DNA of 64,000 nt from Patescibacteria group bacterium (GTDB lineage Bacteria > Patescibacteriota > Minisyncoccia > Phycocordibacterales > PALSA-1337): positions 70,042-134,041 of the forward strand of contig JBBTRB010000004.1 of the NCBI GenBank assembly GCA_038065395.1, read 5' to 3'. Position numbers and translations under genes: made by a program. The notes beneath the pieces are model-generated. The model had not been told where the DNA came from. It did no database searches and saw nothing but the letters and a program-made list of their open reading frames with translations. Positions 4,480-44,396 of the stretch are shown in pieces. Numbering within the stretch: the stretch's first letter is position 1; each line of letters opens with the position of its first letter.

Positions 4480-4550
4480 TGGTGGAGGTGAGGGGAATCG
4501 AACCCCTATGTTTATCTTGTCGAAGGATAACATCCGGCCTTGGCACCCCC
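4480..4550 (-). ncRNA. tRNA-like small RNA, copy 1 (71 nt)
   Basis: 7-bp acceptor stem GGGGGUG/CACCUCC. T-arm AGGGG-UUCGAUU-CCCCU. Discriminator A and encoded CCA. The body is 67 nt before the discriminator, about 5 nt too short for a cloverleaf. It is preceded by a conserved leader hairpin and by motif copy E. Confidence 0.6.
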
Positions 4551-4592
4551 ACGCGGGAAGATATCTATCCTCCGCAGGGTAACCATATCAGG

Positions 4593-4634
4593 TCGAGATG
4601 AAGAAACGATGAATTTAGGTTAAATTCTTGATAA
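4593..4634 (-). promoter_or_regulatory. Conserved upstream motif, copy E (transcription orientation: ttatcaagaatttaacctaaattcatcgtttcttcatctcgacc)
   Basis: Shares the core TTT(A/T)AC/GAGAC-TAAATTCAT-CGTTTCTT-CATCTC with the other copies. It sits about 45 nt upstream of the tRNA-like RNA 5' end. Confidence 0.55.
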
Positions 4635-4668
4635 AAAACAAAAAAACACACGTATCGAGCCATACCCC

Positions 4669-4698
4669 TTGCATATCTTGACCCCTTCGTTGTATAAT
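4669..4698 (+). promoter_or_regulatory. Sigma70-type promoter of rpoD (TTGCAT, 18-nt spacer, TATAAT)
   Basis: A canonical -35/-10 pair lies 29 nt upstream of the rpoD ATG. Classical sigma70 promoters therefore exist alongside the distinct 42-bp motif. Confidence 0.6.
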
Positions 4699-4726
4699 CG
4701 TCAGAACAACTTAGCTTTCTTTTCTC

Positions 4727-5941
4727 ATGGCAAAATCAAAAAAGACGACCAAATCAAAGCCGGCACGTGCTCGCAAGCCTGTGGCAAAATCCGCATCCAA
4801 GCCCAAGAAAAAGACAAAAGGCGTCTCGTCTCGCAAAGCTGCACCCAAGGTCAAAGCCGACCAGAAGAGTTTCGAATACAAGGCGACCAAACTCATCCAA
4901 AAGGGGCGTGATCGTGGTTTCGTCACGTATGACGAGATCCTCAAAGAGTTCCCACAGATCGAGAATGACATCGTCTTCCTCGATGAGCTCTATTCCAAAC
5001 TTTCTACTGCCAACGTCGACGTCCTCGAAGGGGGGGGCCTCCTCGAAGTCGAAGACCTGACCGTCAAGAAACCTTCGGCATATGGAACACGCCACAGTGC
5101 TGACTCTGCCTACGACTCTATCCAGATGTATCTCAAAGAGATCGGTCAATATCCGCTCATTACCGCCGCCAATGAAAAGGAGCTCGCTCGTCGTATCCAA
5201 GCAGGGGATCTCGAAGCCAAGAACCTCCTTGCAAAGGCCAACCTGCGTCTCGTGGTGTCTATCGCCAAGAAATACGTCGGTCGTAGTCCGGATCTGACAC
5301 TCCTCGACCTGATCCAAGAAGGTAACTTGGGACTTTTCCGTGCGGTAGACAAGTTCGACTGGACCAAAGGCTACAAGTTCTCGACTTATGCTACCTGGTG
5401 GATCCGTCAGGCCATCACCCGCGCATTGGCTGACCAGTCTCGCACTATCCGTGTACCGGTACACATGGTAGAGACCATCGCAAAATACAAACAGATGGTA
5501 CGACGTCTCACCCAAGACCTCGGTCGCGAGCCTTTGCCCGACGAGATCGCTACTGAGATGGGTATGGATGTTAGCAAGATCTACCAGATCGAAAAGATCG
5601 AGCAAGACGTCGTGTCGCTCGAAAGTCCTGTTGGAGACGACAGTGAAGATGGCAAGTCCACTCTCCAAGATTTCGTGGCAGATGACAAGATCCTTTCCCC
5701 TGATCAGGAGTCATCACATCGTATCCTCCGCGACCACGTCAACACGATCCTCGACGATCTCTCAGAGAAAGAACGCAAGATCCTCGAGATGCGTCATGGT
5801 CTCAATGACGGTATCACACATACCCTGGAAGAAGTCGGTCGTGAATTTGGAGTCACTCGCGAACGTATCCGTCAGATCGAAGCCAAGGCTCATGAAAAGA
5901 TCCGTCAGCACGACAATATCGATAGGCTCAAGAACTACTAA
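4727..5941 (+). CDS. rpoD: RNA polymerase sigma factor RpoD (sigma-70)
   Basis: Region 2 ([40 protein letters not shown]), region 3 and region 4 ([22 protein letters not shown]). Lys-rich N-terminus. Confidence 0.95.
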
Positions 5942-42460: not shown

Positions 42461-43417
42461 TTAGGAAGTAACAAGTACGTCCTTTGTCTTTTCTAAATAG
42501 GTTTGCAGATCATTTATTCCTTGTTCTTTTCCTGTTTTGCTCCAAAGGGTAAAAAGTATATGACTTTGAATAATTATCGCGGCTTGAAGGACTTTTCGGT
42601 TTAACGCTGTTGTGTCCTCAGAATAACCTCTAATAAGTTGCTCAGCAACCTCACCATCTATTCCGCGTCCTATTGCTTTGCAGATGGCACTTGCCAAGTC
42701 CATATAAGGGTGATTAAGAGTTGGAATAGGATCAAAAATTGTTATAGGGTCAGTATCAAAGACATTCTGGTAGGCAAAATCGTTATGGCAGTAGCTACTT
42801 TCTGAGGAATTTCCAACGTATTCCACAAGGATTTTAATAGCAAGCGGGAAATTGTCACTTGTTTCATCCAGGTCAGGTCTTTTCTTATCAATTGCATCCT
42901 GGAGCCAGTTTCTAAACTGAGTATAATTACCTTTTCCATTTTTTATAGAACCAAAACCTTCTGATTTGGCAGTATGCATTGTACGTAATGCCCTGCCCAT
43001 TTTTACAAACATTTCTTTCTGTAGAACCTCACCTTTTTTGTATGCTTCGTGAAGTGTCTTGGCATCTATGAAGTCCATGAGCAAGTAATGGCTCCCATCG
43101 ATAGTACCTTCTTCGATAACATGAGGTACGTTGACACCAACTTTTTCCCAGGCCTTCAGGAACATGCCCTCATATTCATAAAAAGATTTAGCACTAAGAG
43201 GAATTTTCAAGACCTTTTTTGTGTCACCGGTATCAAGGATGCAAGTGAGGGAAGCGACTCCAGCCGAAGGAAAAAACACGTGTACGTCCTTGTCTTTAAA
43301 TAATATATGTTGATTCAGAAATGTTTCTATATGAGGTAGAAGACTCATGCGGCGCTTATTTGAATCTGAATAGTGGTCAAGCTCGGAAACTTTGGGTTGA
43401 TTGAGAAAAGTAATCAT
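42461..43417 (-). CDS. Aminoglycoside phosphotransferase/choline kinase-family protein kinase-like enzyme
   Basis: Brenner motif HNDFAYQNVFD (HxDxxxxN) and a downstream D-x-[DE] region. APH-like length. Confidence 0.6.
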   Translation of the reverse strand: MITFLNQPKVSELDHYSDSNKRRMSLLPHIETFLNQHILFKDKDVHVFFPSAGVASLTCILDTGDTKKVLKIPLSAKSFYEYEGMFLKAWEKVGVNVPHVIEEGTIDGSHYLLMDFIDAKTLHEAYKKGEVLQKEMFVKMGRALRTMHTAKSEGFGSIKNGKGNYTQFRNWLQDAIDKKRPDLDETSDNFPLAIKILVEYVGNSSESSYCHNDFAYQNVFDTDPITIFDPIPTLNHPYMDLASAICKAIGRGIDGEVAEQLIRGYSEDTTALNRKVLQAAIIIQSHILFTLWSKTGKEQGINDLQTYLEKTKDVLVTS

Positions 43418-43485
43418 ATAGAAAGTATAACAAAGACATTTAAAAGAAAAAACGCCCGTTAGGACGTTTTCTCATTTTTCATTTG

Positions 43486-43794
43486 CTCCGGAGACAGGAT
43501 TCGAACCTGTGACCAATCGCTTACGTATACTCCACTATTACTAATGGTACGGACTATATCATTCCCATATTCCACGGTCAGTGGAAGTTAGGGAAGAGGC
43601 GCTTCGTCCGATGCAACATCGGACTACTCCCCGAAGGGATAGTCTCTACACCTTCCCCGACATGATGTCGGGGCTTGGCTCGGTATTGCCCATGGGGATG
43701 GGTTTCACCGAATTCACCTCTTTTTCGATCCGTCTTTCAACGAAAAGCTGCAATAAGTTTACAGGCGACTGCTCTACCGCTGAGCTACTCCGGA
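43486..43794 (-). tRNA. tRNA-Asn(GUU) interrupted by a 237-nt group I intron between anticodon-loop positions 35 and 36
   Basis: 5' exon 43761-43794: UCCGGAG-UA-GCUC-AGCGGUA-GAGC-A-GUCGC-CUGU. 3' exon 43486-43523: UAA-GCGAU-UGGUC-ACAGG-UUCGAAU-CCUGU-CUCCGGA-G. The spliced product is close to E. coli tRNA-Asn, with the identical CUGUUAA loop and G73. The intron starts after U. Its internal guide GCAG pairs with exon CUGU (U.G at the splice site). It has AGACUA...UAGUC P7-like strands and ends in G. Confidence 0.75.
43524..43760 (-). other. Group I intron (no internal ORF)
   Basis: See the tRNA-Asn entry. The P1 helix, ~237-nt size and terminal G fit a tRNA-type group I intron. The track ORFs inside it are spurious. 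Confidence 0.65.
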
Positions 43795-44039
43795 ATGTAT
43801 TTTTTAAGGAACTCCTTTCCGTATCCACTCTTCAATCTTTTCTCTTCTTGCCTTGCCGCAGACCTATCCTTTCCTACTAACTTACAATATATCATTTTCC
43901 ACGGTCTGTATGGTCGAGTAGAAGTTACTTCACCGGCATTATGTTCGATAAGCCTTTTCTCTGGGTGATAACTCATGCCGACATATATCCTGTGGTCTAC
44001 TTCGCTGAGTAGTGCATATACGTAGTACATCTTCTCCAT
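43785..44039 (-). CDS. Small GIY-YIG nuclease-domain protein (84 aa); its stop codon overlaps the first 10 nt of the tRNA-Asn 5' exon
   Basis: MEKMYYVYALLSEVDHRIYVGMSYHPEKRLIEHNAGEVTSTRPYRPW... shows the GIY-(10-11 aa)-YVG pattern plus the conserved R and E/N. The start is placed at the internal Met; the upstream part of the track ORF overlaps the duplicated exon. Confidence 0.55.
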   Translation of the reverse strand: MEKMYYVYALLSEVDHRIYVGMSYHPEKRLIEHNAGEVTSTRPYRPWKMIYCKLVGKDRSAARQEEKRLKSGYGKEFLKKYIPE

Positions 44040-44050
44040 GAGATAGAGTT

Positions 44051-44112
44051 TATCACAGGCAACTGCTCCCTGCCTGCCGGCAGGCAGGTACCGCTGAGCT
44101 ATCCCGGAATAG
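44051..44112 (-). repeat. Degenerate duplicate of the tRNA-Asn 5' exon and exon-intron junction, carrying a 20-nt perfect palindrome insertion (cctgcctgccggcaggcagg)
   Basis: Minus-strand reading: UCCGGGAUAGCUCAGCGGUA[CCUGCCUGCCGGCAGGCAGG]GAGCAGUUGCCUGU-GAU-AAAC. The true gene reads UCCGGAGUAGCUCAGCGGUAGAGCAGUCGCCUGU|AAAC. Confidence 0.6.
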
Positions 44113-44171
44113 GTCTCTATCTCAATGCGAACATGAGAAAATGTACCACATATGGTACCGTAAATCAAAAC

Positions 44172-44396
44172 ATGTACATACACGTCAGAGTTATTGCCGA
44201 TGCACGGAAAGAAGAGGTTACGCATACCTCGAAGGATCATATGGTCATACGAGTGACAGAGAAGGCCGAACGCAATCAGGCCAACAAAAGAATTCTGGAA
44301 ATACTTCGAAGTTTATACCCGAATACCTTCATCCGTATTATCAATGGTCACCATTCACCATCGAAACTCATATCAGTCGATACGAAAGATGAGTAG
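44172..44396 (+). CDS. DUF167 (YggU-like) family protein
   Basis: IHVRVIADARKEEV.....MVIRVTEKAERNQANKRILEILRSLYPNTFIRIINGHHSPSKLISV matches v.v.a.P.A..n.....l.v.v.a.P..GkAN..l...La..l......i.iv.G..sr.K.i.i. Confidence 0.5.
   Translation: MYIHVRVIADARKEEVTHTSKDHMVIRVTEKAERNQANKRILEILRSLYPNTFIRIINGHHSPSKLISVDTKDE

Follow-up and report, generated by a model that had tools for sequence, protein, structure and literature searches.

What is a small nuclease gene doing wedged between a tRNA gene and a broken copy of the 5' part of the same tRNA? This question is raised by a locus on contig JBBTRB010000004.1 of a Patescibacteria group bacterium, within the 64-kb stretch of DNA that was analyzed as a whole (here called the window). 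Read along the minus strand, the locus consists of a relic of the 5' part of tRNA-Asn that carries a palindrome, an open reading frame (ORF) coding for a GIY-YIG nuclease, a tRNA-Asn gene bearing an intron, and a terminator-like hairpin. Comparison with relatives reveals that the nuclease gene, the palindrome-split relic, and the intact tRNA make up a three-part unit that recurs at tRNA genes in many bacterial phyla. The unit apparently has not been described so far: in the open-access literature, which was also searched for the palindrome sequence, we found no account of a minimal GIY-YIG gene that is linked to a tRNA and accompanied by a relic with a palindrome.

A scan of metagenome contigs recovered 462 confirmed relatives, the best 80 of which were kept, yielding 74 nonredundant ORFs; 68 had enough downstream sequence, and 68 enough upstream sequence, to be evaluated. 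In 56 of the 68 relatives evaluable downstream, a tRNA on the same strand has its start at -45 to +30 nt relative to the stop codon. ARAGORN calls these 56 tRNAs Asn (32), Arg (11), Lys (6), Leu (3), "Thr" (3), and Phe (1). Of the three "Thr" calls, L169 and L176 at least are intron-bearing tRNA-Asn by their sequence, and five identities, Asn, Lys, Arg, Leu, and Phe, are in use. On the upstream side, the palindrome is present within 150 nt, with no more than three mismatches, in 54 of 68 relatives and is exact in 42 of them. Without the palindrome, the segment ahead of the ORF can be aligned with the downstream tRNA, from a leader position between -9 and -1 to nt 20 to 45, with ~90 to 100% identity. 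The combination of relic and palindrome is found ahead of the ORF in 54 of 68 relatives, which span five tRNA identities and several phyla; this speaks against the suggestions in an earlier note on this DNA that the locus records a single event of illegitimate repair or a second copy of the intron in decay.

In the unit, native upstream DNA gives way to the relic, which covers the first 20 to 45 nt of the tRNA, and the ORF begins ~30 nt further on. The palindrome follows tRNA nt 20 to 23 in 46 of 55 mapped cases, the remainder having it after nt 7, 9, 12, or 15, and its distance to the ATG is ~11 to 45 nt regardless of its position in the tRNA. The stop codon often falls on one of three triplets in the 5' half of the tRNA, namely, U8-A9-G10, the D-loop GGUAGAGC, or the anticodon-loop UAA. 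The sharing of nucleotides between stop codon and tRNA pointed out earlier for the window is real, its TAG corresponding to nt 8 to 10 of the tRNA that begins at 43794, and an ORF end inside or just before the tRNA is a trait of the family. The first three relatives whose contigs were inspected (L002, L003, and L004) all have their parts in the same order. Synteny with the window (PriA-Def-Fmt-HPF-DUF167) is seen in L003, which also has the identical 46-nt block comprising relic part A, the palindrome, and GAGC; the L003 ORF, 65% identical to that of the window, runs into an intronless tRNA-Asn. The arrangement is found at tRNA-Lys(UUU) in L002 and at tRNA-Asn in L004, the latter with variant hairpins (CCTACC...GGTAGG) in which pairing is kept. 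A search with the palindrome alone likewise yields the unit in a curated WWE3 genome (L041, tRNA-Lys), a Chitinophagales metagenome-assembled genome (MAG; L122, tRNA-Leu), a MAG labeled Gammaproteobacteria (L110, tRNA-Gly), and a viral contig (L243).

Two further observations concern variants of these parts. In a lineage at tRNA-Arg(CCU) (L185, L195, L198, L199, L202, and L177), the ORF reads 12 codons into the tRNA before stopping at the anticodon-loop UAA, and a conserved protein tail, APVAHKDRAAVS, is encoded wholly by tRNA sequence. A second recurrent hairpin, CCTGTCTACCGACAGGTAGA, occurs in tRNA relics between the acceptor strand and the D-arm (L132, L139, L146, L177, and L180) and is nested in the first palindrome in L141 and L143, while whole runs of related hairpins, GGCAGGCCTGGCCCTTCGGGAGGCAGG, are found in L131, L143, and L145.

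Table 1. Parts of the tRNA-linked nuclease unit in the window, with the basis for each assignment
Feature	Positions	Strand	Basis
Relic part A: 2 leader nt and tRNA-Asn nt 1-20, ATTCCGGGATAGCTCAGCGGTA	44089-44110	-	22-nt direct repeat with 43775-43796, 91%
Perfect 20-nt palindrome CCTGCCTGCCGGCAGGCAGG, arms of 10+10 nt	44069-44088		Repeat search
Relic part B': tRNA nt 21-34 GAGCAGTTGCCTGT, then GATAAAC	44048-44068	-	13/14 nt agree with real exon
84-aa GIY-YIG ORF, catalytic domain only; ATG at 44039, TAG at 43787-43785	43785-44039	-	Pfam PF01541, E = 3e-12
5' exon of tRNA-Asn(GUU), nt 1-34, acceptor strand UCCGGAG	43761-43794	-	Spliced sequence folds as tRNA-Asn(gtt)
237-nt group I intron at anticodon-loop position 35/36, no ORF inside	43524-43760	-	Rfam RF00028; ARAGORN -i
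38-nt 3' exon of tRNA-Asn, anticodon U36 to discriminator G, CCA not encoded	43486-43523	-	Sequence, ARAGORN -i
Intrinsic-terminator-like hairpin and T-run, 13 nt past the tRNA	43446-43473	-	Sequence
Inverted-repeat arms of 10 nt, TGAGATAGAG and CTCTATCTCA	44115-44124 and 44049-44040	-	Repeat search

In the window (Table 1), the claims of the earlier note about the anatomy of the locus stand, apart from a small shift in coordinates. The 84-aa GIY-YIG ORF and the intact intron-bearing tRNA-Asn are both present (Pfam; RF00028 and ARAGORN -i), the 22-nt direct repeat and the 10+10-nt inverted repeat were picked up independently by repeat search, and the D-loop of the exon copy is indeed split by a perfect 20-nt palindrome. 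The copy of the tRNA-Asn 5' exon is present as well, with boundaries at 44110-44048 that differ by 2 to 4 nt from the 44112-44051 first proposed. Its tRNA-like nt 1 is at 44108, and part A covers the 5' strand of the acceptor stem and the D-arm up to the D-loop. Aligned by hand and by repeat search, the relic without its palindrome equals the real 5' exon at 31 of 34 nt. The palindrome is inserted cleanly between the D-loop GGTA and the D-stem GAGC without target duplication; a search tolerating three mismatches finds no second copy in the window, and none turned up in 100 shuffles. Only 8 nt separate the GATAAAC at the end of the relic from the ATG of the ORF. The sole strong terminator-like site of the unit follows the tRNA and is likely to mark the end of a transcription unit comprising the relic, the ORF, and the tRNA. 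The inverted repeat TGAGATAGAG/CTCTATCTCA brackets the relic, with its downstream arm abutting the ATG, and could mask the start region in RNA. As a feature of the family it was rejected, being specific to the window (the 49 other loci tested reach at most 7 nt), and an exceptional RNA fold of the relic leader was rejected too (z = -1.65).

In a local scan, the intron of this tRNA scores 61.6 bits against RF00028, for which the gathering score is 50, and both the P1 pairing CUGU/GCAG and the terminal G of a group I intron can be read from the sequence. ARAGORN detects the tRNA-Asn(GUU) gene only when introns are allowed (-i); default ARAGORN and a whole-window Rfam scan at gathering scores returned no RNA gene in the 64 kb, and under the nondefault settings (local E-value scan and ARAGORN -i) it is the only tRNA found in the window. 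Patescibacteria commonly have group I introns in tRNA-Asn at position 35/36 (PMC13011429), and the present one is of exactly this kind in site, in length (~240 nt), and in being overlooked by default tRNA finders. The nuclease genes reported within such introns are of the HNH type, not GIY-YIG, and the same paper has no mention of GIY-YIG genes, relics, or palindromes.

The relic itself bears on the history of the intron. Its CCTGT is followed by GATAAAC, which matches without gaps the first 7 intron nt of the tRNA-Asn of L181 (CTGT followed by GATAAACGCAGC), while an intronless junction agrees with it at only 1 of 7 positions. Since GATAAAC is the start of the L181 intron, the relic probably retains an exon-intron junction from an intron variant other than the one now present in the gene. 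The earlier note had seen in the relic the first 4 nt of the resident intron; an exon-intron junction is thus probable, as it proposed, but from a different variant. A reading of the relic end as a 3-nt insertion plus 4 intron nt was dropped, given the gap-free fit to the L181 intron start. What the junction shows is only that the allele from which the relic formed bore an intron of another variant.

Does the intron belong to the unit? Group I introns were confirmed 3' of the ORF in L146, L165, L169, L176, L181, and L161, and in all, only 8 of the 56 tRNAs downstream of relatives have one, the other 48 being intronless. Conversely, L206 has a group I intron in its tRNA-Asn and no ORF, and the syntenic L003 has the ORF and no intron, so a consistent partnership between nuclease and intron was not found. 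The intron is an independent passenger of this tRNA-Asn allele and not a component of the cassette, and the link to intron mobility drawn in the earlier note is not supported. On that account, the locus would be the footprint of an intron and its homing endonuclease at this one tRNA-Asn, with the palindrome incidental. We consider it highly improbable. It draws on the apparent exon-intron junction CCTGT/GATAAAC in the relic, on the frequency of introns at tRNA-Asn 35/36 in Patescibacteria, some with nuclease genes (PMC13011429), and on a 17-nt stretch, 88% identical, shared by the ORF (43893-43909) and the intron (43566-43582). However, the ORF side of this stretch encodes a YRPW motif conserved throughout the family, and the match is probably due to chance (~0.02 such matches expected in the region by our own estimate). 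Relic, palindrome, and ORF precede intronless tRNAs in most relatives, L003 included, and the palindrome is conserved rather than incidental. Furthermore, the known intron nucleases of tRNA-Asn are HNH enzymes (PMC13011429), whereas the present protein is similar to SLX1 and UPF0213 and not to I-TevI.

This placement of the protein is supported by several lines of analysis. The Pfam GIY-YIG domain spans residues 4 to 75 of 84, which leaves no room for a second domain, and the last few C-terminal residues are encoded by tRNA sequence. In an alignment of the window protein with 18 relatives (19 sequences), Y8, Y19, R29, H33, N34, and E66 are invariant, as is a C-terminal LKSG.G.E.L motif. An AlphaFold2 model (pLDDT 96) has the order of strands and helices expected for GIY-YIG; together with the PF01541 motifs and the catalytic residues, this makes the protein a member of that superfamily. 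In profile searches against PDB sequences, the UPF0213 proteins EF2693 and BH0048 rank first and SLX1 next (E = 2e-9 for 1ywl, 2e-6 for 1zg2, 3e-5 to 4e-4 for SLX1, and 1.3e-3 for I-TevI). Foldseek places the SLX1 nuclease domains 6sei, 6seh, and 7cq3 on top, with TM scores of 0.67 to 0.72 and 28 to 33% identity, and retrieves I-TevI and UvrC only at E values of ~1 or above. The stand-alone domain therefore belongs to the SLX1/UPF0213 branch and is closer to it than to the UvrC/I-TevI branch. With only 84 aa in total, it has no counterpart of the C-terminal DNA-binding domain that follows the catalytic domain in I-TevI and Seg. The protein is a minimal nuclease of the SLX1/UPF0213 type, not a two-domain homing enzyme. 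Of the two findings that the earlier note had set against its own reading, affiliation of the protein with UPF0213 and absence of the exon-like segment from close relatives, the first is what we observe (with SLX1 and UPF0213 rather than I-TevI and Seg), yet the segment is present in close relatives.

The nuclease family is large, with 4,242 representative clusters at E <= 1e-10. No match for the nuclease was found in NCBIfam, PHROGs, or PADLOC. Prokaryotic Slx1-like proteins have been described as minimal stand-alone domains, which as of 2006 were unexplained, and a fusion of an Slx1-like domain to TrmH, a tRNA D-loop methylase, has been reported (PMC1564403). The UPF0213 structures 1ywl and 1zg2 have been solved since 2005 (release date), and no link to tRNA genes is mentioned for the solved proteins in PMC1564403. 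UPF0213/YhbQ and the nuclease domain of eukaryotic SLX1 have the same minimal domain and the same catalytic residues as the present protein; SLX1 differs in requiring SLX4 and in bearing a RING domain. From UPF0213, the tRNA-linked subfamily is set apart by its fusion to the tRNA and its companion palindrome, and no NCBIfam model matches it.

Occupancy of the site was assessed in syntenic loci recovered by anchoring on the neighboring DUF167 protein. Occupied sites are those of the window, of L001, a nearly identical contig from groundwater samples, and of L003. The corresponding sites of L205 (DUF167 74% identical) and L210/L211 are empty, with a plain tRNA-Asn and neither ORF, relic, nor palindrome. 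Such presence/absence polymorphism is that of a free-standing homing gene, and in this respect the locus behaves as the free-standing selfish nuclease gene that the earlier note had envisaged as one option. L206 to L208 have the intron-bearing tRNA-Asn without an ORF and, ~60 nt upstream of it, a 12-nt tRNA-like remnant, which may be the scar of a lost cassette. That remnant, ATTCCCTGTAGC, follows a promoter-like GATATACT and is succeeded by an unrelated hairpin-like segment and then by the real tRNA.

The acceptor strand of the window relic is UCCGGGA, as in the intact tRNAs of L205 and L003; relic part A is identical both to the relic of L003 and to the intact tRNA of the empty site in L205, and the flank upstream of the relic shares GC-TTGAGA-N9 with L205. 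The relic hence looks like the 5' end of the resident tRNA. The working tRNA is of another allele (UCCGGAG...CUCCGGA) with a different T-stem and is internally compensated. In L127, L129, L190, and L198 too, relic and tRNA are two bona fide alleles of one isoacceptor. Tandem arrays and decay products of the unit also occur. L142 has two units in tandem that are identical at 242 of 243 nt, and L171 is similar. In L087, no more than the first six codons of the ORF are left between the palindrome-bearing relic and the tRNA, and in L034, L008, and L005 the ORF is missing altogether, although relic and palindrome persist. Integration from a circle by crossover in the D-arm does not fit the window, where the acceptor strands of the working tRNA pair with each other and differ from the relic. 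The DNA between the repeats encodes no recombinase, and what is repeated is the 5' part of the tRNA, unlike what is expected of an integrase-borne element. Outside the unit, genes for large serine recombinases lie beside tRNA-Asn in L004 (3301-4884, occupied site) and L211 (790-2343, empty site), which suggests that tRNA-Asn serves other integrating elements as well.

In five close pairs of relatives, two of them in the tRNA-Arg(CCU) group (pairs including the window were left out because of indels), dN/dS is 0.06 to 0.19, with 38 to 69% of synonymous sites changed (pS 0.38 to 0.69). Among six tRNA-Arg(CCU) loci, the palindrome is identical at protein identities of 59 to 89% and with upstream flanks that can no longer be aligned; from the relic through the palindrome to the 14 nt beyond it, there is almost no variation in this group. 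To judge from these comparisons of sequence, the protein and the palindrome are under purifying selection. Gene conversion from the neighboring tRNA could fix the tRNA-like parts but never the palindrome, so the palindrome must be either selected at the sequence level or repeatedly renewed. As the nuclease is the only protein encoded by the unit, it is the simplest candidate for a reader of the palindrome. The palindrome had been taken at first for a random disruption of the D-loop, but it stays identical over distances at which synonymous sites are saturated and is a conserved part of the unit.

Strong purifying selection on the protein and conservation of relic and palindrome would also be expected if the unit were a vertically inherited operon that serves the host. 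In that case, a housekeeping nuclease, active for instance in repair or processing at highly transcribed tRNA genes, would be coexpressed with the tRNA, and the relic and hairpin, products of local duplication and gene conversion, would form a structured 5' leader that stabilizes or throttles the message. The narrow range of distances from palindrome to ATG, the identity of the acceptor strands in 24 of 33 relic/tRNA pairs, and the inverted repeat that could sequester the start codon in the window are in keeping with such a role, as are the UPF0213 proteins being the closest relatives in sequence and the reported fusion of an Slx1-like domain to TrmH (PMC1564403). Yet the inverted repeat is not conserved in the family, and the fold of the leader is unexceptional. 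Moreover, occupancy is patchy among syntenic close relatives, the tRNA identities differ, tandem arrays and decayed copies occur, relic and tRNA are chimeric alleles in at least five loci, and one copy is on a viral contig. On balance, we regard a host-serving operon as quite unlikely.

The palindrome is not confined to the unit. Exact copies were found at >120 loci in species-representative genomes, a lower bound, and in 35 viral stretches, against ~0.5 copies expected by chance in 596 Gb (our own estimate for uniform base composition). The hosts belong to Patescibacteria, Bacteroidota, Omnitrophota, Planctomycetota, several proteobacterial classes, Thermodesulfovibrionales, and Chloroflexota; cultured isolates are among them. 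Of the 120 genome loci listed, 16 have a tRNA within 500 nt and ~7 a detectable relative of the ORF. Copies away from tRNAs often lie in short intergenic stretches of tandem 7- to 8-mers or are nested in other GC-rich hairpins. The flanks are enriched ~3- to 4-fold in direct and inverted repeats of at least 7 nt relative to controls from the same loci. Exact flanking duplications of 5 to 7 nt are seen at 5 of 123 genome copies and in none of the tRNA relics, and 70 of 123 copies have no flanking repeat whatever; the palindrome itself consists of two abutted 10-bp inverted repeats. The notion that the palindrome always comes with a target-site duplication was consequently rejected, this being true of a minority only. 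In the viral contig L236 (2239-2330), the palindrome sits in the variable loop of a tRNA-Met, which ARAGORN calls as a 92-nt tRNA, and L213 is similar; the insertion in L236 may be tolerated by mimicking a long extra arm.

Such dispersal raises the possibility that the palindrome itself is the mobile unit, moved in trans by SLX1-like nucleases into single-stranded loops, much as REP sequences are moved by RAYT, with the tRNA relics as tolerated landing pads and the nuclease gene beside the palindrome as a RAYT gene stands beside REPs. We keep this possibility as a live rival, though a rather improbable one. The number of copies across phyla, most of them off tRNAs, would fit it, and so would the variety of tRNA loops hit (after nt 7, 9, 12, and 15, in the anticodon stem-loop in L110, and in the variable loop in L236), the nesting of the palindrome in other hairpins and of the second hairpin type in the palindrome, the enrichment of repeats in the flanks, and the few exact duplications there. 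However, the insertion in tRNA relics is clean and without duplication, more than half of the copies (70/123) are free of flanking repeats, and the window has but a single copy. Random colonization would also leave unexplained why 46 of 55 placements are in the same part of the D-loop and why the ORF is constantly fused to the tRNA.

Of the scenarios considered, we favor, with about as much doubt as confidence, that the unit is a selfish nuclease cassette that occupies tRNA genes, is cotranscribed with them, and spreads by recombination stimulated by its nuclease, with the palindrome as the cognate site. On this model, the cassette would have no promoter of its own and would be read from that of the tRNA, in a single transcript ending at the terminator past the tRNA. 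Cleavage by RNase P at tRNA nt 1 would free the tRNA and, as the overlap locks the ORF to the tRNA, would also sever the message before its stop codon, which would hold the output of nuclease low. The nuclease, lacking a DNA-binding domain and closest to the structure-selective SLX1, would probably recognize hairpin or cruciform DNA, for which the palindrome is the candidate. A break or nick made by it would let recombination copy the cassette into a tRNA gene still free of it; the tRNA-derived sequences on either side, relic to the left and tRNA to the right, would travel with the cassette as homology arms, and the 5' end of the resident tRNA would be left behind as the relic.

Several points weigh against such a cassette. 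Cleavage and transfer by the nuclease are what we infer from anatomy, recurrence, polymorphism, chimeras, and selection. The D-arm of the downstream tRNA is unaltered and identical to that of empty sites, while it is the D-loop of the relic that is split by the palindrome, and an intact D-arm provides no obvious self-immunity if the nuclease is directed at this position. Past the palindrome, the relic always fits the local tRNA type (Lys, Arg, Leu, or Gly), which a ready-made cassette moving between tRNA types does not explain. The protein is without the DNA-binding domain that confers specificity on the known GIY-YIG homing enzymes. The acceptor strands of relic and tRNA that are identical in 24 of 33 loci fit in situ duplication or gene conversion as well as homing. 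In L197 and L200, an intact ORF occurs with neither relic nor palindrome among relic-bearing relatives in the same synteny, so these two parts are dispensable, at least temporarily. Finally, ~100 of the 120 genome copies of the palindrome listed have no tRNA and no detectable ORF relative in their vicinity, and the palindrome therefore has an existence outside the cassette. It is the lack of evident immunity in the tRNA, the match of the relic to the local type, and the predominance of palindromes off tRNAs that keep belief and doubt in a homing-type model evenly poised.

A bolder version would make the 20-bp palindrome the smallest known mobile DNA unit, put by SLX1-like nucleases into the loops of folded DNA, be they tRNA cloverleafs or other hairpins, and the cassette a killer-rescue drive. 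Insertion of the palindrome would disable the resident tRNA gene, and the cassette would supply a replacement tRNA; with the end of the ORF lying within this tRNA, the two could not be parted. We consider this version unlikely.

Measured against known systems, the selfish cassette that we favor has its nearest parallels among free-standing GIY-YIG homing genes. The gene of F-CphI adjoins the intron-containing psbA of cyanophages. Like such genes, the present one lies between or beside conserved genes and not in an intron, is polymorphic in its presence at a conserved site, is near tRNA genes, and likely spreads by recombination with flanking sequence. It differs in that enzymes of the Seg and I-TevI type have 200 to 250 aa and a DNA-binding domain, whereas the present nuclease consists of nothing but the catalytic domain and is a member of the SLX1/UPF0213 branch. 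To our knowledge, no known free-standing homing gene comes with a relic of its target and a conserved palindrome or ends inside a tRNA. An example of such a gene is that of SegB of phage T4, a free-standing GIY-YIG homing endonuclease gene in the tRNA gene cluster (PMC2330249).

Two other classes of elements are reminiscent of the unit in part. Genomic islands and prophages integrate into tRNA genes (see, e.g., Williams 2002). As with these, a tRNA gene is the target, a working tRNA is regenerated, and a partial copy is left as a direct repeat; islands and prophages, however, encode an integrase, and it is the 3' part of the tRNA that they duplicate, whereas the cassette is without integrase, measures ~0.33 kb, and duplicates the 5' end and a few leader nucleotides. 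Mobile GC-rich palindromes include the REP/RAYT system of proteobacteria and the Rickettsia palindromic elements. GC clusters and palindromic repeats in fungal and algal organelles are a further instance (PMC7218506 and PMC2670323). The present palindrome shares with these short hairpins their distribution across AT-richer genomes, nesting, and insertion into structured RNA genes and, with REP, an association with a dedicated nuclease gene; unlike them, it is a unit of only 20 bp with one sequence across phyla. A REP/RAYT system proper is not what we find, as the enzyme is a GIY-YIG nuclease and not an HUH (Y1) transposase and the 64 kb contain one copy of the palindrome.

With these findings, a subfamily of thousands of clusters gains a genomic partner in tRNA genes, a candidate substrate in the 20-bp palindrome, and a testable activity. 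If the unit is mobile, selfish DNA can occupy essential, universal genes in very small genomes without killing them, and the unit would be a likely route of gene exchange across phyla. There are practical consequences for annotation as well. Gene callers extend the ORFs through the relic, and in 28 of the 149 best family representatives the called ORF contains the translated palindrome as a spurious N-terminal tail such as "LPAGRQ" or "PACRQA"; the protein database entry for the window is a 146-aa overcalled version of the 84-aa protein. Default tRNA and Rfam scans, for their part, overlook the intron-bearing tRNA entirely.

In the window, the locus is flanked by a divergent DUF167 gene on the plus strand (44133-44396) and, on the minus strand, by a gene for an APH-family kinase (42461-43417). 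Elsewhere in the window, a partial tmRNA-like match on the minus strand (4480-4550; 35.5 bits, under the gathering score) lies beside a sigma-70 gene on the plus strand (4727-5941), and a "tRNA-Thr with a 948-nt intron" called by ARAGORN -i at 4480-5522 was rejected, as it overlaps that sigma-70 gene.

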